From contig CAVVLJ010000016.1 of assembly GCA_963749075.1 (NCBI GenBank), positions 1,056,001 to 1,120,000 of the forward strand: a DNA stretch of 64,000 bases. The letters are read 5' to 3'. Of the stretch, positions 27,402 through 41,081 are shown one piece after another. Origin of the DNA: an uncultured Pseudomonadota bacterium (lineage in GTDB: Bacteria > Pseudomonadota > Alphaproteobacteria > JACZXZ01). Each line of letters begins with the position of its first letter. The stretch's first letter is position 1. The notes below the pieces were generated by a model. The model did no database searches and was not told where the DNA came from. It worked only from the letters and a program-made list of their open reading frames with translations. Position numbers and translations under genes: made by a program.

Positions 27402-27507
27402 GGGGATTGCCTCTTTTGAGGGCGGCGATCGATCCTATATAAAGACGGTTTGCGCCGGATACGAGGGCAAATCCGGCATGGCGGCATGGGCCGCAGGGGG
27501 CGGAGTC

Positions 27508-28588
27508 ATGGCATTGCGCTCCGAAGAGGCGGCGGACGGCGGGCCGCGTGCGCGGCAGAAGACGGCGGCGCTCATCTCGGTCGTGGTGCCCTTCTACAAC
27601 GAGGGGGCGGGGGTCGAGGCCTTCTTCGCCCGCCTCCTCCCGGTGCTCGAGCGCCTCGGCTTCGCCTGGGAGATAGTCTGCGTCAACGACGGCAGCGAGG
27701 ATGATACCCTCGACCGGCTGTTAGGCGCGCACGAGCGCGATCCGCGCATCAAGATCATCGATTTCTCGCGCAACTTCGGCAAGGAGCTGGCGCTCTCCGC
27801 CGGCCTCGCGCACGCCAAGGGCGACCTCGTGGTGCCGATCGACGCCGACCTGCAGCATCCGCCGGAGGTCATCCCGGAGATGGTCGCGAAGTGGCGGCAG
27901 GGCTACGAGGTGATCTATGCCGAGCGGGCGTCGCGCGATTATCAGAGCCGGCGCGCGCGTTTCATGTCGCGCGCCTTCTATTGGATCTTCGACCGGCTCT
28001 CCGACGTGCCGCTGCCGCAAGGTGCCGGCGATTTCCGCCTCCTCGACCGCCGCGTCGTCGACGTGATCAATCGCATGCCCGAGCGCACGCGCTTCATGAA
28101 GGGCATCTTCGCCTGGGTGGGCTTCCGCCAGATCGGCGTTCCCTTCACGCCCGAGGCGCGCCAGGCGGGCGGGAGCAAGTGGGATTTCGTGCGCCTGCTG
28201 CGCTTTGCCTTCGACGGGCTGACGGCGTTCTCCAACTTCCCGCTCAAGGTCTGGGGCCTGATCGGCGCCACCATCTCGCTGCTCGCCTTCGTCTATATCG
28301 TCGTGCGTCTGCTGCGCACCGCGATCTACGGCATCGACGTGCCCGGCTACGAGTTCGATCATCGTCACCATTCTCTTCCTCGGCGGCATGCAGCTCTTGA
28401 CGCTCGGCATCATCGGCGACTATCTCGGCCGCGTGTTCGACGAGGTGAAGGGCCGCCCGCTCTACGTCGTGCGCGCGGCCTACGGCTTCGAGCAGGCGGA
28501 GGCGGCCGAGCTTGCGCGCGCGGCGCCCCCGCGCGACATTCCTGGCCGCGAGACCGCCGAGGCCGCGCGCGCCGAGGTGCGGTCCTGA
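27508..28588 (+). CDS. GtrB-like GT2 polyprenol-phosphate glycosyltransferase, +1 frameshift near 28354
   Basis: [38 protein letters not shown]; C-terminus [19 protein letters not shown] in the next frame. Confidence 0.87.
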
Positions 28589-28983
28589 AGGCAGCCCTTC
28601 TCCGCGCGCGGGCCTTTTGGCTCGGCCTCGCCTTGCTTGCGCTCGCCTACGCCGCCGCCTGGGAGCTGCGCCAGCTCTATATTGAGCCGAGCGCGGTGGC
28701 GCTCGTCTGCAATGCCGCCTCCCATCCCTCCTGGTGCGCCATCCGCTTCGCGATCCTCTTCGCCCAGCGCGAGGCGCTCTTCGGGATCGCCGCCGTGGTC
28801 ATGGGCGGCGTGGCACTCCTTTGCGGCGGACCGAAAGCGGCCATAGCCGCGATCGCGCTCTCGGCGCTGGCGATCGCCAATTACAACGTGGAGATGGGGG
28901 CGCTCGCCCTCGTCGCCGGCCTCATTGCGAGCGTGGGGCGAGGGCGGCGGCGCCTGCCGGGCGAAGGCGCCGCGCAAGCCTGA
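28585..28983 (+). CDS. small hypothetical membrane protein (start uncertain)
   Basis: About 4 TM segments, YIEP..VALVC...WCAIR; distal part of ORF 27355..28983. Confidence 0.6.
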
Positions 28984-30583
28984 CGCCCCACGGCAGCGCC
29001 AGCAGCAGAAGCACGGCACACCAGCCGAGGGCCTCCCAATTGCGCAGACCCTCGCCGATCAGCACCGCCGCAGCACCGAGGAGGAGCAGCGCCACGAGCA
29101 GCGCTTCCTCGCCGAGGGAGCCCGCCGCCGCTGCCGCCGGCTCGCGCCAGGCAAGTGCGGCAAAGCCCACCGCCGGCAGGAGGAACGCAGCACTCGGGAA
29201 GTCGCGGTAGCGCGGGTCCACGACGAGCGCCACGGTCACCACGGCCGCCGCCACCACGAAGCCGAACTGCAGCAAGCCGAGCATGCGCTCGCCGAGGCTC
29301 GGCCCCGGGAGCGGCCGTCCGCGCAAGAGGTTGAGCGCCTCCTCGGCACTCGGCAGCGGGCCTGCCGGAAAGCGTCCTCCGGCGAAGGCCTCGGCAAGGG
29401 CGCGCAACAGAAGCACGGCGAGAAGTGCTGACGCGGCAAGGCCGAGGGCGCCGGCAATCCAGTCGAAGGGGGACCAGGAGATCAGCAGGGTGAGCGTCGC
29501 GTCGCCCACGAGGAGCGTGCCGATGAGCTCCGCCGCGCAGGCGAAGACGAGGCATCCGGCGAGGCCGAGTGCTGGGCGGCGCCACGCCGCGAGGAGGAGT
29601 GCCAGAGCGGCGAAGCCGGTCGCCAGCGCATAATGGCGGCGCCAGAGACGGTCGTTCGACACCGGACCCGAGAGTGCGAACTTGGCCTCGCGGTCGGCAT
29701 CGTAGAGGCCCCAATGGCCGCCGACCGTGCCCTCGAGGCTGCGCTTCCACGGCTCGTCGAAGGCCTCGAAGAGGTTGTAGTCGAGACCCCGGTCGCGGGC
29801 CAGACTGACGAAGCCGCGGATGAGGCGCGCCTCGTTCACCAGGCTGGCGGCCGCCCCCTCGCGCATGCGCCCGGCGCTCGGCCAGCCTATCTCTCCGATC
29901 ATCACGCGCTTGCCGGGAAATGCCGCCTGCACCTTGGCGAGCACGGCGGACACATGATCGAGGGCGTGGCCGATGGCGACCGGAGCGTCCTCCCAATAGG
30001 GCAGGATGTGGATGGTGATGAAGTCGACATGGGAGGCGAGCTCGGGGTTCTTGAGCCAGAACTCCCATACGTCGGCGTAACTCACCGGCTGCCTGACCGC
30101 CGCCTTGACCCTGTCGATATAGGCGGCGAGCTCGGGGGCCGTGAGATCGCGGCGCAGCATCACCTCGTTGCCGACGATCACCCGCTCGATGACGTCGGGG
30201 TAGCGGTTGGCGAGATCGATGCCGCTCGCCAGCTCGCGCTCGTTCACCTCGGGCTCGCGGCCGAGCCAGATGCCCTGGGTCACCTTGAGGCCGAGCGGCC
30301 GGGCGAAGCGCGGTACGGCCTCCAACCCCTCGAGGCTCGTGTAAGTGCGCACGCCGTCCACGCTGTCGGCGAGCACGGCCAGGTCCCCTGAGATCTCGTC
30401 GAGGCTCGGTGCGATGCGGGCAAGCGGGCTCTCGCCGCGGCGGTAGGGGCTGAAGGAGACGCTTGCGGTGCGCGCGACGCCGGCGTCCGGCACCGCCTGC
30501 TTGCGGCCCTCATGGCTCCAATAGAGAAGACCGCCAAGTGCTGCGGCGACGAAGCACAGCAGCAGGACCGCCGAACGCATCAT
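28922..30583 (-). CDS. GH17 beta-glucan glucanosyltransferase with C-terminal membrane domain (NdvC-like)
   Basis: SFSPYR, VGNEVMLR, YADVWEFW, HILPYWE, GEIGWPSAG, EAFDEPWK, DPRYRDFP. Confidence 0.85.
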   Translation of the reverse strand: MMRSAVLLLCFVAAALGGLLYWSHEGRKQAVPDAGVARTASVSFSPYRRGESPLARIAPSLDEISGDLAVLADSVDGVRTYTSLEGLEAVPRFARPLGLKVTQGIWLGREPEVNERELASGIDLANRYPDVIERVIVGNEVMLRRDLTAPELAAYIDRVKAAVRQPVSYADVWEFWLKNPELASHVDFITIHILPYWEDAPVAIGHALDHVSAVLAKVQAAFPGKRVMIGEIGWPSAGRMREGAAASLVNEARLIRGFVSLARDRGLDYNLFEAFDEPWKRSLEGTVGGHWGLYDADREAKFALSGPVSNDRLWRRHYALATGFAALALLLAAWRRPALGLAGCLVFACAAELIGTLLVGDATLTLLISWSPFDWIAGALGLAASALLAVLLLRALAEAFAGGRFPAGPLPSAEEALNLLRGRPLPGPSLGERMLGLLQFGFVVAAAVVTVALVVDPRYRDFPSAAFLLPAVGFAALAWREPAAAAAGSLGEEALLVALLLLGAAAVLIGEGLRNWEALGWCAVLLLLALPWGVRLARRLRPAGAAALAPRSQ

Positions 30584-31113
30584 GGCGTGCGGCTGGCCCC
30601 GGAGACATGCTCGAGAAGTGCCAGCAGCCCCTCGAGGAGCTGCTGCGGGGAGGGCGGGCAGCCGGGGATGTGGAGGTCGACCGGGAGCACCTCGCCGACG
30701 CCGCCCACCACCGCGTAGCTGCCGGCGAAGGCGCCGCCGTCGCGCGCGCAGTCGCCCACGGCGACGACCCACTTGGGGTGCGGGGCCGCCTCGTAGGTGC
30801 GCTTGAGCCCCTCGCGCATGTTAGCCGTCACGGGGCCCGTCACCAGCAGCACGTCGGCGTGACGCGGCGAAGCCACGAAGCGGATGCCGAAGCGCTCGAG
30901 GTCATAGATGACGTTGTTGACGGCGTGGATCTCGAGCTCGCAGCCGTTGCACGAGCCGGCATCGACCTCGCGGATGGCGAGGCTGCGCCCGAGCCGGGCG
31001 CGCGCCGCCGCCTCGACGCGCCCGGCGAGCTCGGCGAGCGCCGCCTCGCCTGGCCGAGGCGCCGCCACGGTCAGCGGTCCTCCGAAAACGCTCTTGGCGA
31101 TCAGCTTCCACAT
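30580..31113 (-). CDS. hyfI: Ehr/hydrogenase-4 small subunit (HyfI/NuoB-like, Fe-S)
   Basis: GSCNGCELE, SPRHAD, GDCA, PGCPP. Confidence 0.9.
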   Translation of the reverse strand: MWKLIAKSVFGGPLTVAAPRPGEAALAELAGRVEAAARARLGRSLAIREVDAGSCNGCELEIHAVNNVIYDLERFGIRFVASPRHADVLLVTGPVTANMREGLKRTYEAAPHPKWVVAVGDCARDGGAFAGSYAVVGGVGEVLPVDLHIPGCPPSPQQLLEGLLALLEHVSGASRTP

Positions 31114-31147: not shown

Positions 31148-32671
31148 TCAAAGATCGGCGCCCGAGTAGGAGCAGTTGAAGGACTTATTGCAGAGCGGGA
31201 AGTCCGCGACGATGTTGTTGAGGATGGCGGCCTCGAGGAGCGGCCACTGCAGCACCGAGGGGTCGCGCGCGTGGCAGCGCACGACGCGGCCGTCCTCGCC
31301 GAGCCGCACCCAGGTGAGGATGTCGCCGCGGAAGCCCTCGACGAGGGCGCTGCCCTCGCCGGCGCGAGGCGAGAGCTCGGTCTTGACCGGGCCAGGCGGC
31401 AGGTGTGCCAAGATGTGCTCGACCAGGCCGAGGCTCGCGTCGATCTCCTCCATGCGGAGCTGCACGCGTGCATTCACGTCGCCCTCGCTCAGCACCGGCA
31501 CCGTGAAGTCGAGCTCGTCATAGGGCGGATAGGGTGCCGCCTTGCGCGCATCGAAGCCGCGCGAGGACGCGCGGCCCACGTAGCCGCCCGCCGCGAAGCG
31601 GTGCACGAGCGCCGCCGAGACGGTGCCGGTCGCGACCGTGCGGTCGAGCAGCGAGGGCTTGTTGTCGTAAATCTCGGCGAGCGGCGGGAAGTCGCGGCGG
31701 AGCGCCTGCGCGAGCTCGCCGAGGCGGTGCCGGCCCTCGGCCGCCAGGTCCACGGCGACGCCGCCGGGGACGACCCTGTCCATCATGAGGCGGTGGCCGA
31801 AGGCGGCGGCCGCCGCCTGCAAGGTGCGCTCGCGCAGCACGCCGCAGTGGGCGTGCATGAAGGCGAAGGCGGCGTCGTTGCACACGGCACCCACGTCGCC
31901 CACGTGGTTCGCTATGCGCTCGAGCTCCGCCATGAGCGCGCGCAGCCAATGGCCACGCGCCGGCACGCTCGCGCCGAGCGCCGCCTCGACGGCGCGCGCG
32001 AAGGCGAGCGAGTGGCCAACCGTGCTGTCGCCCGAGATGCGCGCCGCGAGACGCGCCGCGTCGCCCACCTCGCGGCCCGCCATGAGGCGCTCGGTGCCCT
32101 TGTGGACGTAGCCGAGCCGCGCCTCGAGCCGCACCACCGTCTCGCCGCTGGCGTGAAAGCGGAAGTGCCCCGGCTCGATGATGCCGGCATGGACGGGCCC
32201 GACCGGGATCTGATGAAGCGCCTCGCCCTCGGCGGCGAGGAAGGCATATTCGCTCGCGGGCCGTGCCGTGGCCGGCTCGGGCCGCGTCGACAGCGGGTGG
32301 CGCAGCGCCCATTGCCCGTGGTCGAGCCAGGGGCGCGCGTCGACGAGCCCGTCGGCCGTAAGGCCGCTCAAGTCCTGGATCGCGCGCTCGAGCCGGATGG
32401 CGCCCGGACGCACGGCCGAGAGCGAGGGAAAGCGCCCCTCCGGACAGGGCAGCGAGACGATGGCGAGCGCCTTGCTCGCCTCCTCGAAAACCGCCGCGTG
32501 AACTTCGGCGGGCTCGGCCCAGAGGGCGAGGAGCGCCCAGTCGGTCTGCCCGAGCCGTGCGATGAGAGTTTGCCAGCCGTCCGGAGAAAGGCGCACGCGC
32601 GGCCAGGGGCCATGCTCCGGCACCGGCGTGCCCAGGCCGAGGAAGCCCGGGAGATCGGCAGCGTCGCTCAT
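31148..32671 (-). CDS. hyfG: Ehr/hydrogenase-4-like large subunit (NuoC+NuoD-like) lacking NiFe-binding motifs
   Basis: GPVHAGIIEPGHFRF, GYVHKG, ARISGDS (no CxxC), C-terminal DFPLCNKSFNCSYSGADL. Confidence 0.88.
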   Translation of the reverse strand: MSDAADLPGFLGLGTPVPEHGPWPRVRLSPDGWQTLIARLGQTDWALLALWAEPAEVHAAVFEEASKALAIVSLPCPEGRFPSLSAVRPGAIRLERAIQDLSGLTADGLVDARPWLDHGQWALRHPLSTRPEPATARPASEYAFLAAEGEALHQIPVGPVHAGIIEPGHFRFHASGETVVRLEARLGYVHKGTERLMAGREVGDAARLAARISGDSTVGHSLAFARAVEAALGASVPARGHWLRALMAELERIANHVGDVGAVCNDAAFAFMHAHCGVLRERTLQAAAAAFGHRLMMDRVVPGGVAVDLAAEGRHRLGELAQALRRDFPPLAEIYDNKPSLLDRTVATGTVSAALVHRFAAGGYVGRASSRGFDARKAAPYPPYDELDFTVPVLSEGDVNARVQLRMEEIDASLGLVEHILAHLPPGPVKTELSPRAGEGSALVEGFRGDILTWVRLGEDGRVVRCHARDPSVLQWPLLEAAILNNIVADFPLCNKSFNCSYSGADL

Positions 32672-32870
32672 CCGGTTCTCCTCTTCCGGGCGGCAACCGG
32701 GAGACCCGGTTTCGCCCGATCAATACCGGCTCTCGCGGAGGGCCGCAATGGCCTGATGGCGCAGCGCCGCGAGCCGCCGGGTGCGGCCCGGCGCAAGCTT
32801 GTACGGATCGGACAATGTGGTAGATAATCGCCCGGCGTCACGGAACGGCCGCTTTTGCAAGGTGGGGGCG

Positions 32871-35094
32871 ATGGCCGAGTTCGACCCGCGGTTCCTGGAT
32901 ATTCTCCGCAAGCGGATCGCGTGGATGCGGCAGAACGGGAAATTGCTGCCCGAAGCCAAGCTCAAGGAGCACTACCGCAGCTTCGCCGGCCGTTTCGGGC
33001 CCGAGCGCCTGGCGAGCGTGAACGGCGAGCCGCTGCTCCGGCTCATGCACCAGCGCCAGTCGCCGAACTCCTTGCTGCACTGGCTCGAGACCAAGGACGA
33101 CGCCGAATTCCCCAAGGGCATCGGCAGCATGATGGGCGAGAGTGCCACGAGCTACGGCGTCTATCAGTCGGCTTCCGGCGGCGCCTGGCTCAAGGACGGG
33201 CCACGGGGGGACGAGGAGATTCTCGCTGCGCGAGGCGGTCGGCTTCGCCGAGGCGCAGCGCGACGAGCTCTTGCGCGGCTGCGAGCTCCTGCGCGCGCTG
33301 CCGCCCGAGGCCGGCGACGACGAATACGCGAACCTCGATGCGGAGATGGGCCAGTTGGCCCACAGCGTGAGCGGCACTGCCTGGGGCCACCGCTACTTCA
33401 CCCTCGTCCATCCCGAGAAGCTGGATCACTTCCACAGCCCCGTCTACCAGCGCTTCCACCTCATCAAGTCGCTGCAGCTGCCGCCGGAGGAGACCGGGCG
33501 CTACGCCTGCGCGGGACGCTTCGTGGCGCTTGCGCGCGCGCTCGAAGTGCCCATGAGCCACCTCGTCACGATGCTCAACTACCGCAATGGCCGGCCGCAC
33601 GGCTATTGGCGCGTCTGGGCCGAGGAGGAGGACGGCGACAAGGGCTCCTGGCTCCTCATGCAGGCGCGCTCATGCATGGCCATCGGCTGGCCGGCGCTCG
33701 GCAATCTCGATTGGCTGCTCGACGAGAATGCCGACGAGGACAGGCTCACCCAGCTCCTGCAGCAGCACTATCCGACCAATCCGCGCGCCATCGGCCATGC
33801 GCGGCGGCAGATCCTGAATTTCATCCTGCGCGCAAGGCCGGGCGACTTCGTCGTGGCCGCCGACGGCAGGGGCAACCTCGGCATCGGCCGCGTCAAGGGC
33901 AACTACAGCTTCGACGCCAACGCGGCATTTCCCCATCAGCGGCAGGTCGAGTGGCTGAACCTGGAAACCTGGCTGATGCCGGAGACGGAGGCGCCGCGCA
34001 CGATCTTCTGGCAGCTCCTCAACCAGCTCAACCTGATCGCCGTCGAGCGGCGCCTTGCCGGCCTCTCGCCGCCGCCGGCGGTGCCGCGCGGGCGCATGGT
34101 CGATACCTCGCCGGTGGTGGCGCGCATCCGCTCGGCGCTGCAGCGCAAGGGCCAGGTGATCCTTCACGGACCGCCGGGGACGGGAAAGACCCATTGGGCG
34201 CTGCGCGCCGCCTTCCAGCTCAGCACGCGGGAGGAGCCTCCCGGCAAGGTCGAGTTCTGCGCCTTCCATGCCGGCTTCGGCTACGAGGACTTCATCGAGG
34301 GGCTGCGCCCTGCGCCGCTCGAGGCGGGCGCCGGCTTCCGCCTCGAGGACGGCGTCTTCAAGAGGCTGTGCGCGGCGGCGGAGGAGGAGCCCAACCGCAA
34401 TTTCTATCTGGTCATCGACGACATCAACCGGGGCGACGTTCCGCGCATCTTCGGCGAGCTCATGACCGTCATCGAGAAGAACAAGCGCAGCCTCGACGTG
34501 ATGCTGCCGCTGAGCAAGACGCATTTCTCGGTGCCGGAGAACGTCCTCCTCATCGGCACGATGAATACGGCGAGCCGCGCGGTATCGGCGTTCGACGCGG
34601 CGCTGCGCCGGCGCTTCGCCTTCATCGAGTTGATGCCCGACGCCTCGGTCCTGGGAGACGCGGAGATCGAGGGCATCCGGCTCGCCTCGCTCATGGAGGA
34701 GCTCAACCGCAGGATCCTCGCCCACGTCGCCGCCGACGCGCGGCATTTCCAGGTCGGCCAGTCCTATTTCCTGCGCAGCGAGCAGCCGATCGGGGATTTC
34801 ACCTCGCTCGCCGAAGTGCTGCAGAACGAGATCGTTCCCCTCCTCGAGGAGTACTGCGGTCACGACTTCGCGGCGCTCGAGGACGTGCTCGGAGCGGAGC
34901 TGATCGACAAGCCGCGCCTGCGCGTCCGTCACGAGATGTTCGAGCGGCCGTCTTGGGAGAGGCTCACCGAGATCCTGCGGGAGATCGCCGGGGCGGGTGC
35001 CGCCGTGGCGGAGCCCGAGCAGAGTTCGACGACCCGTGCGGCGCTGAAGCGCCTCTCCAGCTCCACCGGCGAGGGCCCGCCCGCTATTGCGTGA
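32871..35094 (+). CDS. McrB-like AAA+ GTPase with long N-terminal domains, +1 frameshift near 33220
   Basis: GPPGTGKT, FHAGFGYEDFIEG, IDDINRG..RIFGEL, GTMNTASR, DAALRRRF, IVPLLEEY; N-terminus in ORF 32781.., remainder in ORF 33142..35094. Confidence 0.85.
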
Positions 35095-35329
35095 GCGTCT
35101 GCCAGCCGCTGCCCCAGCTCTCGGGGCCGGGGATGGCATCCACCCAGGTCGCGATCAGCACGACCCAGATCAGGATGGCGCCCATCGCGATGAGCGGGCG
35201 GCCGTAGTTTCGCGCGTAAAGGAATCCCATGAGGGCGGCGAAGATGAGCGCCTTCCAGGTCGCGACCTGAAGAAAGACGAGTGCCGCCGTGAAAACACCG
35301 GCAAAGAGCACCGTCTCGAACCCGGCCAT
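35084..35329 (-). CDS. small hypothetical membrane protein (81 aa)
   Basis: GGGGGAG RBS, 2-3 hydrophobic helices, stop overlaps the convergent McrB-like gene. Confidence 0.6.
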   Translation of the reverse strand: MAGFETVLFAGVFTAALVFLQVATWKALIFAALMGFLYARNYGRPLIAMGAILIWVVLIATWVDAIPGPESWGSGWQTLTQ

Positions 35330-35464
35330 CACTCCCCCCTCGACGCGCAGCACGGGGACCATCGCTCGGCTGCCGAAGCGGCAAGGCGCCCGCGGCCGCG
35401 CGACCGATTATCCATGACCCTCCGGCCGCGGACAAGCAACCTTAGCCGCACCATGGCAGCGGCG

Positions 35465-36898
35465 CTAGCCCAGGAGCCGCGCCACGTTCTGGAACCAGCT
35501 CACCAGCGCCGCCGGAAGATAGAGACCGGCCACCAGCACGAGCGCCAGATGCACTGCGAGCGGCACGAGCGTCGCGGTGCGCGCCGGACCGCCGCCTTCG
35601 CCCGCCCCGAAGGCGAGGCCTTGCAGGCGGAGGAGGAGCGCTCCGAAGCCCACGAGCAGGCCGACGATGAGCGGGACGGCGAGGAGAGGTGCTCGCGCGA
35701 AGGTCGAGCTCACCACCAGGAACTCGCTCATGAAGACGCCGAACGGCGGCAGGCCGGCGATCGCCACGACGCCTACGACGAGGGCCCAGCCGAGCAGCGG
35801 CTGGCTCGCGGTGAGGCCGCGGATCTCGGCGATCTTCTGCGTGCCCTTGATCTGCGTGGCGTGGCCGACGGCGAAGAAGATCGCGGATTTGGTCAGGCTG
35901 TGCATGGTCATATGGAGGAGCCCCGCGAAATTGGCGAGCGCTCCGCCCATGCCGAAGGCGAAGGTGATGATGCCCATGTGCTCGATCGACGAATAGGCGA
36001 AGAGGCGCTTGATGTCGCGCCGCCGGTAGAGCATGAAGCTCGCGAGGAGGAGCGAGCTCAGGCCCATGCCGATCATGAGCGGCCCGGGTGCGATCGCCTG
36101 GGGATTGCCCGCCAGCAGTATCTTGAAGCGCAGCACCGCGTAGAGGGCCACGTTCAGTAGGAGCCCCGAGAGCACCGCCGAGATCGGCGTCGGACCTTCC
36201 GCATGCGCGTCGGGGAGCCAGGCGTGGAGCGGTGCCAACCCGACCTTGGTGCCGTAGCCGACGAGGAGGAAGACGAAGGCGAGATTGAGGATCGCCGGGC
36301 TGAACTTGCCGACCTCGGGGAGGAGCGTCGACCAGGTCATGGCGGGGAGGCCGGCGCCGACCACGGGCTCCGCCGCGAGATACATGAGCGTGGTGCCGAA
36401 GAGCGCCAAGGCGATGCCCACGCCGCAGAGGATGAAATACTTCCACGACGCCTCGAGTGCCGCCGGCGTGCGATAGAGCCCGACCATGAGCACGGTGGTG
36501 AGCGTGGCGCCCTCGACGGCCACCCACATGACGCCGAGATTGTTGGCCGAGAGCGCCAGCAGCATGGTGAAGATGAAGCCCTGGAACATCGAGTGGTAGA
36601 AGCGGACGTAGCGCGCGTCGAGCCGCCCGATCGCGATCTCGTGGAGGATGTAGTGCTGGCTGAAGAGGCTCGTGGTGAAGGCGACGAAGGCGGTGAGCGC
36701 CAGGAGATAGATGTTGAAGTCGTCGATCAGGAAGAAGGGCGTCGTCGCCGGCCGCACCGCGAAGGGCACCAGGCTGGCGGCGAACGTCAGCGCGGAGGCG
36801 AGGACGTTGAGCCGCGCCGCGATCCTGTAGGAGGGGATGGCCGCGAAGAGGAGCGCCGCGAGCACGGGCGTGCCGAGTATGAGGACGAGGGGGTTCAT
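35465..36898 (-). CDS. hyfF: hydrogenase-4 subunit F (antiporter-like)
   Basis: EASWKYFILCG, GYGTKVGLAPLHAWLPDAHAEGP, KRLFAYSSIEHMG. Confidence 0.9.
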   Translation of the reverse strand: MNPLVLILGTPVLAALLFAAIPSYRIAARLNVLASALTFAASLVPFAVRPATTPFFLIDDFNIYLLALTAFVAFTTSLFSQHYILHEIAIGRLDARYVRFYHSMFQGFIFTMLLALSANNLGVMWVAVEGATLTTVLMVGLYRTPAALEASWKYFILCGVGIALALFGTTLMYLAAEPVVGAGLPAMTWSTLLPEVGKFSPAILNLAFVFLLVGYGTKVGLAPLHAWLPDAHAEGPTPISAVLSGLLLNVALYAVLRFKILLAGNPQAIAPGPLMIGMGLSSLLLASFMLYRRRDIKRLFAYSSIEHMGIITFAFGMGGALANFAGLLHMTMHSLTKSAIFFAVGHATQIKGTQKIAEIRGLTASQPLLGWALVVGVVAIAGLPPFGVFMSEFLVVSSTFARAPLLAVPLIVGLLVGFGALLLRLQGLAFGAGEGGGPARTATLVPLAVHLALVLVAGLYLPAALVSWFQNVARLLG

Positions 36899-37569
36899 CC
36901 GCCGCGCTCGCCGCGGAAGCGCTCGAGGTGATGGACGTCGAGCGTGTCGAAGCGCTCGCGGATGTGGAAGAAAAAGATGCCGAAGATGATGAAGGCGACC
37001 ATCACGGAGAAGGCGATGGAGAGCTCGACCACGAACGGCATGCCCTTCACGCCGACCGCGGCCAGGATGAGGCCGTTCTCGAGCGACATGAAGCCCACGA
37101 CCTGGCTCACCGCATTGCGCCGGCTGATCATCATGAGCAGTCCGAGCAGCACCACCGAGAGTGCCGTCGCCAGGCTTTCGCGCGTGAGCGCTCCGGCCGC
37201 AACCGTCACCGGGAGGACGAGGAGGATGGAGAGCGCCACCAGCGCCATGCCCCCGACCATCGTGGGACCGACGCCGATCACCGTCTCGATGGTGCGGTGG
37301 ATGCGCAAGGCGACGATGATGCGGTGGAGGGCCAGGGGGATGATGATGGCCTTGAGGACGAGGGCGATGCCGGCGGTGATGTAGAGGTGCGGGGCGTTCT
37401 GCGCATGGGCCTGCCAGGCCGCCGCCGCCGCGAGCACGAAGGCCTGCCAGGCATAGGTCTTGATCACGCCGAAGAGACGCCTCTGATAGAGCAGGGCGAA
37501 GCTCAGGAGAAGCACGCCCGTGTCGAGGAGATGGGCGGTATCGTAGGCGGTGTTCGCGAAGCTCGGCAT
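36895..37569 (-). CDS. hyfE: hydrogenase-4 subunit E
   Basis: KAIIIP, QVVGFMSLENG, GMPFVVE, IRERFDTLDV. Confidence 0.88.
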   Translation of the reverse strand: MPSFANTAYDTAHLLDTGVLLLSFALLYQRRLFGVIKTYAWQAFVLAAAAAWQAHAQNAPHLYITAGIALVLKAIIIPLALHRIIVALRIHRTIETVIGVGPTMVGGMALVALSILLVLPVTVAAGALTRESLATALSVVLLGLLMMISRRNAVSQVVGFMSLENGLILAAVGVKGMPFVVELSIAFSVMVAFIIFGIFFFHIRERFDTLDVHHLERFRGERGG

Positions 37570-38516
37570 CAGAGGCCCTGCGAGACGTAAAGGAACACCG
37601 CGGCGAGGAGGCCGAGGAGGAGAGCTCCGCCGAGGAGCTCGCCCACCCGGAAGACGCGCATCTTGGCGATGCTCGTCTCGAAGAGGCCGAGCAGCACGCC
37701 GCCCGCCGCGAGCTTGCCGAGATAGGCGGCAATGCCGATCGCCAAGCTGCGGCCGCCGCCCGCCTCGAGCGCCAGGCCCCAGGGGGCGAAGAGGCAGGCG
37801 ACGAGCGAGATGTAGAGCACCAGCTTGAGCATCGCCGCGGCCTCGATGAGCGCCAGATGGCGACCGGAATATTCCAGCACCATGGCCTCGTGCACCATGG
37901 TGAGCTCGAGGTGGGTCGCCGGATTGTCGACCGGGATGCGGCCGTTCTCGGCGATCGCCACCATCATGAGCGAGACCGCGGCTAGCCCGAGCGAGACGCG
38001 GATGCCCACGCCGTGCGTCAGCACGAACTCGGCGATGTGCGGCAGCGAGGTCGTGCGCACGAGGAGCGCCATGGTGAAGATCACCATCAGCATGGCGGGC
38101 TCGGCGAGCGAGGCGATCATCATCTCGCGGCTGGCGCCGATGCCGCCGAAGCTCGTGCCCGCGTCGATCCCGGCAAGGGCGAGGAGGAAGCGCGCGCTGC
38201 CGAGGAGTGCTACGAGTGCGATGAGGTCCGCGGTGGGGGCGAGGATGAGGCCCGTGGCGAAAGTCGGCACGATGGCGGCGGCGAGCCACACGGCGGTGAA
38301 GATGAGATAGGGGCTCACACGGAAGAGCCAGGAGGCGTTCTCGGCCAGCACGACCTCCTTGCCGAGGAGGCGCCGGAGGTCGCGGTAGGGCTGGATGAGC
38401 GAGGGACCGCGGCGGCCGAGCAGGCGCGCCTTGACGAGGCGCACGAGGCCGCAGAGGAGCGGCGCCACCGCGACCGTGAGGGCGAGCTGAAGAATCTCGA
38501 GCGCCAAGGCTCTCAT
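37569..38516 (-). CDS. hyfC: hydrogenase-4 subunit C (NuoH-like)
   Basis: RRGPSLIQPYRDL, FGGIGASRE, ENGRIPVDNPATHLELTMVHEAM. Confidence 0.9.
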   Translation of the reverse strand: MRALALEILQLALTVAVAPLLCGLVRLVKARLLGRRGPSLIQPYRDLRRLLGKEVVLAENASWLFRVSPYLIFTAVWLAAAIVPTFATGLILAPTADLIALVALLGSARFLLALAGIDAGTSFGGIGASREMMIASLAEPAMLMVIFTMALLVRTTSLPHIAEFVLTHGVGIRVSLGLAAVSLMMVAIAENGRIPVDNPATHLELTMVHEAMVLEYSGRHLALIEAAAMLKLVLYISLVACLFAPWGLALEAGGGRSLAIGIAAYLGKLAAGGVLLGLFETSIAKMRVFRVGELLGGALLLGLLAAVFLYVSQGL

Positions 38517-40519
38517 TGGCTCACCGCGATCAGCACGAGCAGGATCACGAGCGCCGCGAACATCAGGCTGAGATAGCGCCTGATGGTGAGGAACTGCGTC
38601 GCATTGAGCCTGTCCGCGAGGTAGGAGACGAGGCGCTGGATGGGCACATAGATGCCCTCCCAGGCGGGATCGCGGAGCGTCGCCTCGAAATGCGCCGGCC
38701 GCGGATCGCCGGGCTCGGGCATGTCCACCTGCTCGCGGGCGGCGAAGGCGACCGTGCCGAAGACGCGGCGGATCGGCTGGGCGAAGCTCGCGGCGCTGTA
38801 CTGAGTCTCCGGCCGCGCATCGGGAAAGCCGCAGTCCCAGGCTGGAGCGCGCCGCACGCGGTTGGAGGCGAAGCGGTGGATGACGAGCACCAGGACGCCG
38901 GCGAGGAGGCCCACGGCCACGAGCACGATGAAGCCGCTATAGGAGCTGCGCTCGATGCCGAGCGGCACGAGCAGAAGCCAGCTCGTGTCCGCGAGCGGCG
39001 GCGCCGGCGTCGCGATGAGCTCGCCCACGACCGGGCGCAGAAGTGCGACTACCACGGACGGCAGCACGCCGAGCGCCACGCAGAGTGCCGCGAGGCCCGC
39101 GAGCGGCGCCAGCATGACGCTCCCCACCTCCCGCGCTGCGCCGGCGGCAGCACTCCGCGCGCGGCCGAGGAAGACGATGCCGAAGGCCTTCACGAAACAG
39201 ACGGCCGCGAGTGCCGCGGAGAGCGCCAGCGCAGCCCCCACCACCGGCACGGCAAATTTGGGCATCCAGGCGGCCAGGCGCGAGCCCTCGAGGATCGCCT
39301 GAAAGGTGAGCCACTCGGAGACGAAGCCGTTGAACGGCGGCAGCGCCGAGATGGCGGCGGAGCCGATGAGGAAGGTGAAGGCGGTCACCGGCATGCGGTG
39401 GATGAGCCCGCCCAGGCGCTCCATGTCGCGCTCCCCCGTCGCCTTGAGCACGGCGCCCGCGCCGAAGAAGAGCAGGCTCTTGAAGATCGCGTGATTGAGC
39501 ACGTGGAAGAGTGCGGCGGTGAGCGCCAGCGCCGCGAACGCCGGCAGCGCCTCGGCGCGGAAGGCGAGCGCCAGGCCGAGGCCGATCACGATGATGCCGA
39601 TGTTCTCGACCGTGTGATAGGCGAGCAGGCGCTTGAGGTCGTGCTGCATCAGCGCATAGAGCACGCCCAGGACCGCAGTCAAGCCGCCGAGGAGGAGGAC
39701 CGCCGTGCCCCACCACGGCTGCGGCGCGCCGACAAGGTCGAAGAGGATGCGCACGAGGCCGTAGATCGCGACCTTGGTCATCACCCCGCTCATCAGCGCC
39801 GAGACGTGGCTGGGTGCGGCCGGATGCGCGAGCGGCAGCCAGACGTGAAGCGGCACGAGGCCGGCCTTGGAGCCCGCGCCGATGAGCGCCAGCACGAGCA
39901 CGCCCGCGGCCATGAGCGGCGTCAGATGGTGGGCGCGAATCGCGGCGAAGCTGTAATCGCCCCCGGCGCCCGCGAGCAGCCCGAAGGCGAGGAGGAGTGC
40001 GATCGTGCCGGCAGAGGCCATGACGATGTAGACGTAGGCCGCGTGGCGGGTGTCGGCCTCCTCGTGGGTCGCGAGCACGAGAAGCCACGAGCTCAGCGAC
40101 ATGAATTCCCAGGCGAGGAGAAAGATGAAGGCGTCGTCGGCCACCACCACGAGGCTCATGCCGGCGAGGAAGAGCGGATAGAACGGCAGCACCCGCTCGG
40201 GCTCGCCCTCGTGCCGTGCGTATTGCCAGGCGAAGAGGCTCGCGGCGGCACCTATGAGGTTGACGACGAAGAGGAAATAGCCCGAGAGCCGGTCGAGCGA
40301 GAGATGCCCGGAGAGCCATGGCAGCCCGATGGGGAGCGTCAGGCTCTCGGCGCCGCCGCCGCGGCCGATGCTGAGAAGTGCTGCCGCCGCGAGCAGGCCG
40401 CAGGCGGCGAGCGAGCCGCCGTAGACGACGTCGTGGGCGCGCGGCAGCCGTGCTCCGGCCATGCCGACCGGGCTCAGCGCCAGAAGTCCCAGGATGGCGC
40501 CTGCGACGGTCGACAGCAT
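38513..40519 (-). CDS. hyfB: hydrogenase-4 subunit B (antiporter-like)
   Basis: WEFMSLSS, KAGLVPLHVWLPLAHPAAPSHVSA, KRLLAYHTVENIG, APAWDCG. Confidence 0.9.
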   Translation of the reverse strand: MLSTVAGAILGLLALSPVGMAGARLPRAHDVVYGGSLAACGLLAAAALLSIGRGGGAESLTLPIGLPWLSGHLSLDRLSGYFLFVVNLIGAAASLFAWQYARHEGEPERVLPFYPLFLAGMSLVVVADDAFIFLLAWEFMSLSSWLLVLATHEEADTRHAAYVYIVMASAGTIALLLAFGLLAGAGGDYSFAAIRAHHLTPLMAAGVLVLALIGAGSKAGLVPLHVWLPLAHPAAPSHVSALMSGVMTKVAIYGLVRILFDLVGAPQPWWGTAVLLLGGLTAVLGVLYALMQHDLKRLLAYHTVENIGIIVIGLGLALAFRAEALPAFAALALTAALFHVLNHAIFKSLLFFGAGAVLKATGERDMERLGGLIHRMPVTAFTFLIGSAAISALPPFNGFVSEWLTFQAILEGSRLAAWMPKFAVPVVGAALALSAALAAVCFVKAFGIVFLGRARSAAAGAAREVGSVMLAPLAGLAALCVALGVLPSVVVALLRPVVGELIATPAPPLADTSWLLLVPLGIERSSYSGFIVLVAVGLLAGVLVLVIHRFASNRVRRAPAWDCGFPDARPETQYSAASFAQPIRRVFGTVAFAAREQVDMPEPGDPRPAHFEATLRDPAWEGIYVPIQRLVSYLADRLNATQFLTIRRYLSLMFAALVILLVLIAVSQ

Positions 40520-40677
40520 GGAGCCAGAACCTCTCACGCACGCTTCGGCGGAACAGTCGTGCTCGCCGGACAAGGCGATCCCGCGTCGCTTCGACGGCGC
40601 TGCGAGGGGATGCCGCATGGCTGTCGCGGCTGAACGCGCCGCGGACGGCGTGCAGCATCAAGATCGCGGCGCGGACC

Positions 40678-40704
40678 CTAATATGGCAGAGCCCCCAGCG
40701 TCAA
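40678..40704 (-). promoter_or_regulatory. possible sigma70 promoter of the hyf/ehr operon
   Basis: Minus strand TTGACG...GCCATATT, resembling alphaproteobacterial housekeeping promoters. Confidence 0.3.
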
Positions 40705-41081
40705 TGCGGACGAGAGACGGCAGCCGGCATGGGTGCGGCCATGCGCTGTCCCGAGGGCGGACTTTTATCCCCCTCTTATTCCGAATCAACGCTTGCCTGC
40801 CCGCATATGGCAGGTTACGGTTGCCACGCGCAGTGCGAGTGCTCAAGACCCAAGAGAGGCCTCACGGGCCGCTGCGGTCAGGGGAAGAGGCGGGCGGAGC
40901 ACGGGAGGGGGCCGGACGCTGACCGGCGCCGCGGCACGATGAGCCGGAGGCGGCCGTCAGACAGCCTGGCCAATCGCCGGAGGGTGCGGCGCGCGGCCAA
41001 CATGCCGCGCGGGAGGCGCGTTGTGTCGAGGGCGCGCCTCTGTGCATTCCGGACGCAGAGAGGACGGGAGGTGGCGGCAAC

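Follow-up and report, generated by a model that had tools for sequence, protein, structure and literature searches.

How did an Ehr operon come to be interrupted between hyfF and hyfG by an antisense gene resembling mcrB, and what became of its two halves? The locus that raises this question lies in a 64,000-nucleotide (nt) stretch (the window, to which all positions refer) of contig C16 in the 23-contig genome of an uncultured Pseudomonadota bacterium, here called G000, the proteins of whose relatives carry the label Alphaproteobacteria. The answer considered probable is that a block carrying the McrB-like gene split the operon into two transcription units throughout the genus, that hyfG, hyfI and the GH17-family gene behind them are served by a leftward promoter, and that the McrB-like protein is likely a non-cutting, GTP-binding, nucleic-acid-binding scaffold.

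On the minus strand the genes run hyfB-C-E-F, gap, hyfG, hyfI and GH17, and the Ehr gene set (HyfB, C, E, F, G and I) is complete. HyfG carries the motifs RISGD and DFPLCNKS, has cysteines at positions 76, 264, 276, 466, 494 and 500 only and lacks the CxxC pairs for Ni-Fe, on which grounds the complex is assigned to the Ehr type (as in PMC6349859, in excerpt). The genes concerned are the following:

38513..40519, minus strand: hyfB, Ehr antiporter-like membrane subunit (NF005086, 863 bits, over the cut-off of 667; G001 orthologue 79%)
37569..38516, minus strand: hyfC, NuoH-like (PF00146; G001 orthologue 89%)
36895..37569, minus strand: hyfE (NF008556, 91 bits, below the cut-off of 136; 83% to G008)
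35465..36898, minus strand: hyfF, last gene of the proximal unit (NF005043, 804 bits, over the cut-off; G001 orthologue 90%)
35084..35329, minus strand: 81-residue predicted membrane protein (hydrophobic; homologue P0123, 73%)
32871..35094, plus strand: McrB-like gene with DUF8426-type N-terminus, EVE/PUA-like domain and AAA+ domain, and a +1 frameshift near 33220 (profiles, alignments, fold matches)
31148..32671, minus strand: hyfG, Ehr large subunit without Ni-binding CxxC pairs (PF00346/PF00329; dN/dS, the ratio of non-synonymous to synonymous substitution rates, 0.26 against G001)
30580..31113, minus strand: hyfI, NuoB-like, its stop overlapping the GH17 start (PF01058; dN/dS 0.24 against G001)
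28922..30580, minus strand: GH17-family membrane glycoside hydrolase, last gene of the distal unit (PF00332; at the site in 6/6 genus genomes)

A sequence-only reading of the window had described hyfB-C-E-F as coupled and had placed about 2.8 kb between hyfF and hyfG, holding an 81-residue minus-strand open reading frame (ORF) and the McrB-like plus-strand gene. Both descriptions are borne out: start and stop codons overlap as ATGA at hyfB/C and hyfE/F and as TGATG at hyfC/E, and the interval between the hyfG start (32671) and the hyfF end (35465) measures 2,793 nt and contains the hydrophobic ORF, in the operon's direction, and the antisense AAA_5 gene. Its term for the insert, an inverted cassette, applies to mcrB only, the small ORF having the orientation of the operon.

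The split is genuine and of long standing, a genus-wide insertion. Contigs from public runs, all of one study and possibly from the source sample, bridge the three junctions (X1 at 32325-33197 and 34098-35228, X2 at 35348-35544), and mcrB stands at the same site, divergent to the GH17 unit, in 6/6 genomes of the genus at 65-68% identity, these being G000 and five independently assembled relatives (G001-G005; metagenome-assembled genomes, 79-100% complete). Two of the checks that the sequence-only reading had proposed, on junctions and on synteny, thus show misassembly to be unlikely and the insertion not to be unique to this genome. That an assembly artefact explains the gene order is hardly credible: indel errors are present, six of 123 orthologues being flagged as frameshifted, mcrB and a presumed rel/spoT gene among them, but with the same arrangement in five other assemblies and bridged junctions, misassembly of the gene order was rejected. 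Outside the genus the operon is contiguous, as had been stated to be normal for the hyfBCEFGI type. In the sister genus, G008 has M23-hyfBCEFGI-GH17-YdjC in the same gene order with hyfF and hyfG 7 nt apart, and the Ehr loci outside the split lineage with a HyfG identity of at least 57% are contiguous in 7/7 cases; HyfG of G000 and G001 cluster together at 97/90 support. The mcrB gene was not found in five other genomes of the family, save a 28% match to one domain in G009, and at E<=1e-100 only this genus (g1) was matched among 401 sampled genomes of the class. The G009 match (locus L149, G009:C36:198223-198696), from another genus of the family, is restricted to the EVE-like domain. To judge from these sequence comparisons, the block between hyfF and hyfG likely derives from one insertion in the genus ancestor.

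The insert has the composition of its host. GC content at third codon positions is 0.915 in mcrB, 0.91-0.93 in the hyf genes and 0.864 in the small ORF; no transposase or integrase family was found among the three insert ORFs scanned with profiles, and no terminal repeat, target duplication, tRNA or Rfam match at the insert, the longest repeats common to both junction regions being 8 nt. The earlier statements that mobility genes, terminal repeats, target duplication and a GC shift are absent therefore stand, and a mobile element (insertion sequence or integrative island) was rejected for want of a mobility gene, terminal repeat, target duplication or tRNA site and in view of the host-like codon GC.

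As to how the distal half would be expressed, four candidate signals in the gap were considered:

32720..32748, minus strand: leftward promoter-like motif TTGCnn-N17-TATT(C/G)A, directed into hyfG-hyfI-GH17; position and spacing unchanged in 6/6 genus genomes
32799..32828, plus strand: rightward promoter-like motif for mcrB, (C/T)TGTAC-N16-TAGATAAT; exact spacing in 6/6 genus genomes, one copy in G000
35407..35435, minus strand: promoter-like site TTGTCC-N17-GATAAT before the small ORF; the consensus scan's only match, 9/12 (shuffles mean 0.2)
32695..32711, minus strand: hairpin in the predicted hyfG leader, not significant (z -0.93)

Between G000, G004 and the other four genomes the hyfG-mcrB gap aligns poorly, except at the leftward and rightward motifs with their exact spacing. 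The leftward pattern, defined from the genus alignment and after seeing it, gives 42 matches in 11 family genomes against five for the reversed control, and the motif is kept in G004, where hyfG-I are gone and GH17 is the next gene in front of it. It is without the -7 T, a base commonly absent from alphaproteobacterial promoters (PMC8407463, in excerpt), and for that reason escaped the consensus scan. The distal half hyfG-hyfI-GH17 likely runs from this conserved leftward promoter of its own, as the alignment suggests, and with such a motif read-through from hyfF, in the manner of an excludon, is not needed. Neither this motif (32748-32720) nor the mcrB frameshift figured in the sequence-only reading, which had pointed to an AGGAG ribosome-binding site of hyfG and a promoter-like TTGTAC-N18-GATAAT at 32799-32828; both are present, the latter as the rightward motif conserved in 6/6 genomes. 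The hairpin that it had also noted does exist, but it is no better than chance (36/200 shuffles as good; three relatives likewise not significant, with z ranging to +1.03), its sequence is not conserved in the relatives, and it was rejected as a signal. The fold after hyfF is not significant against shuffles, and a search for intrinsic terminators gave none, either there or where the 3' ends of mcrB and the small ORF converge. Separately, the mcrB and small-ORF promoter regions (32823-32884 and 35316-35412) share GATAATCG, and the starts of the two genes match at 21/25 nt in inverted orientation (MAEFD, MAGFE), which could reflect signal convergence or a trace of duplication; the ribosome-binding site and ATG-GCC account for this 25-nt match.

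The inserted protein has McrB as its best Protein Data Bank matches both by sequence and by fold, and its match to NF008457 falls below the cut-off. The relatives' genes are intact (726-727 residues), and 4/4 complete copies in relatives are full length, with mutual identities of 69-94%, synonymous divergence (dS) up to 0.8 and dN/dS about 0.3; the overall mcrB range of 0.22-0.36, obtained like all such ratios here by a simple counting method on genomes of high GC, is neighbour-like and indicates purifying selection. A model of the intact G001 protein (predicted local distance difference test, pLDDT, 86) comprises helical N-terminal domains (Pfam DUF8426), an EVE/PUA-like domain and the McrB AAA+ domain. 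Its residues 240-393 match 1wmm, which we take to be an EVE domain structure, with Z 10.4 and a root-mean-square deviation of 2.4 over 107 aligned residues, and its AAA+ domain matches 6ut5 with Z 23.8; a single-sequence model of the N-terminal 399 residues gave pLDDT 36. Atlas neighbours of the protein carry DUF8426 and EVE, and PADLOC PDC-S02 matches the EVE-like region weakly.

What sets the genus apart is the loss of the NxxD motif, present in 0/17 genus rows (near-copies included, representing about six lineages) versus 115/115 outside rows taken from the best 120 of 993 matches; no NxD or NxxxD motif occurs in the genus proteins, and the loop, constant in length, has eight different sequences. 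In the tree the genus rows fall together on a long branch (support 100), and of the outgroup-invariant columns they keep 3-7/11 in the signature loop, about 70% of those in residues 1-120 and 82-93% of the rest. Walker A, the pi-stacking residue after it, the double arginine motif (fingers), the C-terminal helical bundle and, mostly, Walker B are retained.

The partner nuclease was likewise not found. The nearest outside relatives (42-48% identity, several phyla) are canonical mcrB-mcrC pairs; McrC lies downstream in 16/17 near-full-length metagenome relatives, the 17th having 148 nt downstream, and at 5/5 distant genome loci tested, a sixth (L058) ending too soon. By profile (PF10117) McrC was detected in 0/6 genus genomes, the control being detected in 2/14; tblastn with three queries gave no match in G000, and none adjoins mcrB in the five genus genomes with downstream sequence. 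The metagenome scan returned no close relative of the protein (best 80 of 181, 30-54% identity), and no publication on this locus or McrB clade was found among mostly open-access texts without supplements, those of PMC11090510 being a place where such orphans could be listed. From the retained and lost motifs we infer a non-cutting, GTP-binding, oligomerising and poorly hydrolysing protein, which by analogy has likely been retained because it took on a new function that involves no cutting.

The copy in G000 departs from this pattern. It carries the +1 frameshift near 33220 and alone shows Glu357-to-Asp (Walker B DE to DD; one of 16 rows) and His501-to-Gln (one of nine rows; both in T. gammatolerans numbering). 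Contig X1 record 4 agrees with the window at both substitutions, and the frameshift base lies where contig coverage is absent, between 33198 and about 33307. Both halves of the gene give dN/dS of 0.30-0.48. Since the six flagged orthologues include mcrB and two doubtful cases, three to five of 122 other genes show the assembly's indel background, and the odds between an assembly error and a young pseudogene are about even. Elsewhere in the window, a gene at about 52910 (C16:1108910), which from its sequence we take to be rel/spoT, differs from its G003 orthologue (84-89% identity) by a frameshift, most likely an assembly indel, and a GT2 glycosyltransferase at 27478-28588 has an apparent frameshift near 28350, its C-terminus continuing in the ORF at 28388-28588.

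The fates of the operon after the split differ among the relatives. G000 keeps all six hyf genes. G001 has single intact orthologues of hyfB, C, F, G and I and the end of hyfE, split by mcrB-lemA-htpX in a block that crosses a contig gap estimated at about 55 nt, and this split Ehr is the only one found in that genome (97% complete). Between G000 and G001, dN/dS is 0.26 for hyfG, 0.24 for hyfI and 0.15 for hyfF, beside 0.25 for GH17 and 0.31 for YdjC; the split Ehr looks functional still. In G002, G003 and G005 an in-frame deletion at a short shared sequence runs from after hyfG codon 40 through the end of hyfI, and the first 40 hyfG codons, fused to the last of hyfI, form a leader of about 50 codons whose stop overlaps the GH17 start:

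L041:15200-15355, L039:1248-1403 and L040:8403-8558: deletion-leader loci in the three genomes

At the site in G003 (L041:3672-10919) and G005 (L042:4048-11286), a distant contiguous Ehr operon stands beside a 53-nt remnant of the native hyfF. This replacing Ehr has 37-43% identity and a 4Fe-4S domain fused to HyfI. G004 has lost Ehr at the site and has another elsewhere. No link between McrB and Ehr function is in evidence, mcrB being retained at the site in all of the relatives without native hyfG-I (4/4). G000 also bears two further Ehr-like operons side by side at C4:507000-528500, with a hyfB-like gene after hyfI in both; one of them has a close relative in G003:C165.

The remainder of the block is less constant than mcrB. 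In four relatives the antisense block is a co-directional mcrB-lemA-htpX, whereas in G000 it is mcrB with the small ORF, whose 3' end overlaps that of mcrB convergently by 11 nt, and lemA-htpX lies elsewhere (C17:3613-5176). There, within C17:197-6572 near the contig start, the lemA-htpX orthologues (90% and 76% to G003) sit between ORF pairs, which we take to resemble toxin-antitoxin modules. No copy of the small ORF was found in G001-G005; it matched no family in profile scans, and all its Atlas matches were under 0.8. A homologue (P0123, 73%) has the accession consecutive to that of the McrB P0005 on an 11,518-nt contig of a further genome, the McrB there being intact (76-79% identity); no protein of that contig was among the best 120 HyfG homologues. 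No paper joining McrB, LemA and HtpX was found in the literature searched.

An older layer of the locus concerns GH17, which adjoins an M23 gene in G006 and G009 and a hydrolase gene in G007, with no Ehr between. The feature that bears on it is the following:

40673..40706, minus strand: promoter-like motif upstream of hyfB, apparently the ancestral GH17 promoter (G009 has a near-identical motif, and G007 a similar one, immediately before GH17)

Because the motif upstream of hyfB matches that upstream of GH17 in genomes where Ehr is absent at the site, the Ehr block is likely an older insertion between GH17 and its promoter, with the mcrB block nested inside; loss of Ehr in the genera of G006, G007 and G009 is the alternative. 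A second short element, CAAGCGTTGATTC, is also common to the M23-hyfB intergenic region (40700-40810) and the one between M23 and GH17 in G009.

Altogether, a history in four steps is proposed. An Ehr operon would have inserted behind the GH17 promoter, separating it from its gene; an mcrB gained by horizontal transfer, probably together with lemA-htpX, would then have landed inverted between hyfF and hyfG in the genus ancestor; a divergent promoter pair in the gap would have restored expression of hyfG-I-GH17, the leftward member probably being kept chiefly by GH17; and with McrC gone, selection would have continued to hold Walker A, the arginine fingers and the fold but not the McrC-responsive NxxD loop, which would have drifted. 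Two mRNAs would encode the Ehr subunits, with assembly to follow.

Several other accounts have to be weighed against this history. The sequence-only reading had offered two, an old insertion that made hyfG-I a separate divergent unit and an excludon-like noncontiguous operon. The former stands as an ameliorated insertion, given its presence in six of six genomes, the intact sister operon and the leftward motif in all six, and the latter found no positive support. It would have one mRNA run from hyfB through hyfF and across antisense mcrB into hyfG-I, with mcrB and Ehr repressing each other. Untranslated read-through over 2-4 kb is, as a general matter, expected to be curtailed by Rho. The layout is the defining one, co-oriented and functionally linked genes broken by an antisense gene, and with no intrinsic terminator after hyfF or between the overlapping 3' ends some antisense overlap is plausible, yet such operons require a transcript spanning the antisense gene and are not predictable from sequence (PMC11034616, in excerpt). 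Against it, hyfG has a conserved promoter-like motif of its own, the antisense block varies by lineage, extending over three genes and about 4.1 kb in G001, and mcrB persists in G002-G005 despite loss of hyfG-I or of the entire Ehr, so that this account is quite unlikely. An McrB still in defence, sensing modified phage DNA and signalling to an effector other than McrC (LemA, the M48 protease, the 81-residue protein or a distant partner), is unlikely. It would suit the retained EVE/PUA-like reader fold, the weak PADLOC matches, the lemA-htpX pair downstream of mcrB in four genomes and the mention of McrB proteins coupled to co-effectors in an excerpt of PMC10602043, but the fixed site in six genomes and neighbour-like dN/dS are unlike defence genes, which are typically patchy, G000 has its lemA-htpX at another locus, the small ORF converges on mcrB and is not co-transcribed with it, and no paper was found that links the three proteins. 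A decaying passenger, a neutral relic kept for the GH17 promoter region while the split Ehr is on its way out, is very unlikely. Loss of hyfG-I in four of five relatives, in three by an in-frame deletion that preserves GH17 coupling, the frameshift in G000 and the high dN/dS between the closely related G001 and G003 (0.88 in the N-terminal part, 0.71 in the AAA domain, on few changes) point its way; it was already weakened by the dN/dS values, as all four complete copies in relatives are full length and combine dS up to 0.8 with a ratio near 0.3, invariant columns beyond residue 120 are kept at 82-93% outside the loop versus 3-7/11 within it, and no hyf gene is relaxed in G000 or G001.

The favoured history, in which the mcrB block made two units of the operon, also has points that weigh against it. 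Native hyfG-I are lost in four of five relatives, two of which hold a contiguous foreign Ehr, so that the split may be a handicap often resolved by loss, and the two additional Ehr-like operons on C4 possibly make the split copy of G000 redundant. With its frameshift, Walker B substitution and His-to-Gln change, mcrB in G000 may be a young pseudogene. The promoters are known here as motifs only, picked out post hoc from an alignment; the order proposed for Ehr and GH17 depends on Ehr being absent from the site in three genera and present in two, without a species tree; the six genomes are related and do not count as independent events; a DUF2357 search aimed at McrC-type partners gave no information, its control being silent; and the new role of McrB is a guess by analogy. 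A more far-reaching version is possible but decidedly tentative: an independent alphaproteobacterial domestication, in which McrB lost its McrC-trigger loop and became a genus core gene with a cell-biological job, while the promoter block rewired Ehr into two separately regulated halves. That job might be a role as chromosome or envelope/division scaffold, given the neighbours M23, bactofilin, LemA-HtpX and GH17.

Operon splitting by insertion is a known process, and the split alone would be ordinary. The value of the locus lies in the six genomes, a natural series after an energy-complex operon was cut, in which the operon was kept split under selection, trimmed in frame, lost or replaced by a contiguous foreign copy. 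Should the split Ehr be expressed, its membrane and soluble arms would not need to be co-transcribed. The McrB, without McrC and the NxxD loop and with the rest kept, would be a clean natural test of a nuclease-free McrB and, alongside PcdA, another candidate for the domestication of a defence gene.

Among known systems, operon death by insertion, such as that of ptr into recC-recB, likewise leaves a conserved operon split by inserted genes with its halves nearby, as in 11/66 dead operon pairs of Escherichia coli, and likewise includes replacement by a foreign copy, of which G003 and G005 are the instances in this genus; energy-conversion operons are unusually resistant, with 31 genes in surviving operons and none in dead ones, whereas here it is an energy-complex operon that was split, with several stages visible within one genus (PMC1480536, in excerpt). 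Ehr complexes of the hyfBCEFGI type share the six-gene set and a large subunit without Ni/Fe ligands (PMC6349859, in excerpt) and differ from the present case, in which two transcription units are predicted and GH17 is coupled behind hyfI. The noncontiguous operons of Staphylococcus aureus share co-oriented, linked genes interrupted by an antisense gene (PMC11034616, in excerpt), but here the read-through transcript that defines them would be hypothetical, and the distal genes have their own conserved promoter-like motif. McrBC type IV restriction, as in E. coli and T. gammatolerans, has in common the AAA+ fold, Walker A, pi-stacking residue, double arginine motif and, putatively, N-terminal reader domains (PMC7680126 and PMC11090510, in excerpt); the NxxD, NxD or NxxxD motif, described as present in all McrB-like GTPases (PMC11090510, in excerpt), and a McrC partner were not found in the genus. 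A close likeness is PcdA of S. aureus, the published precedent for McrB co-option, an McrB-family AAA+ protein with an EVE-type domain, no McrC, degenerate catalytic motifs and clade-confined conservation (PMC10602043, in excerpt); absence of McrC, eroded catalytic motifs and clade-wide conservation under selection are found here too. PcdA, which binds FtsZ/DivIVA, has its EVE domains as a tandem pair, its Walker A/B motifs are degraded and a C-terminal helical bundle is absent according to the same excerpt, whereas the genus protein has one EVE-like domain in the model, keeps Walker A, arginine fingers and bundle, and has lost the NxxD loop. It belongs to another McrB subfamily, in Alphaproteobacteria, and the likeness is one of way of working, not of membership in PcdA.

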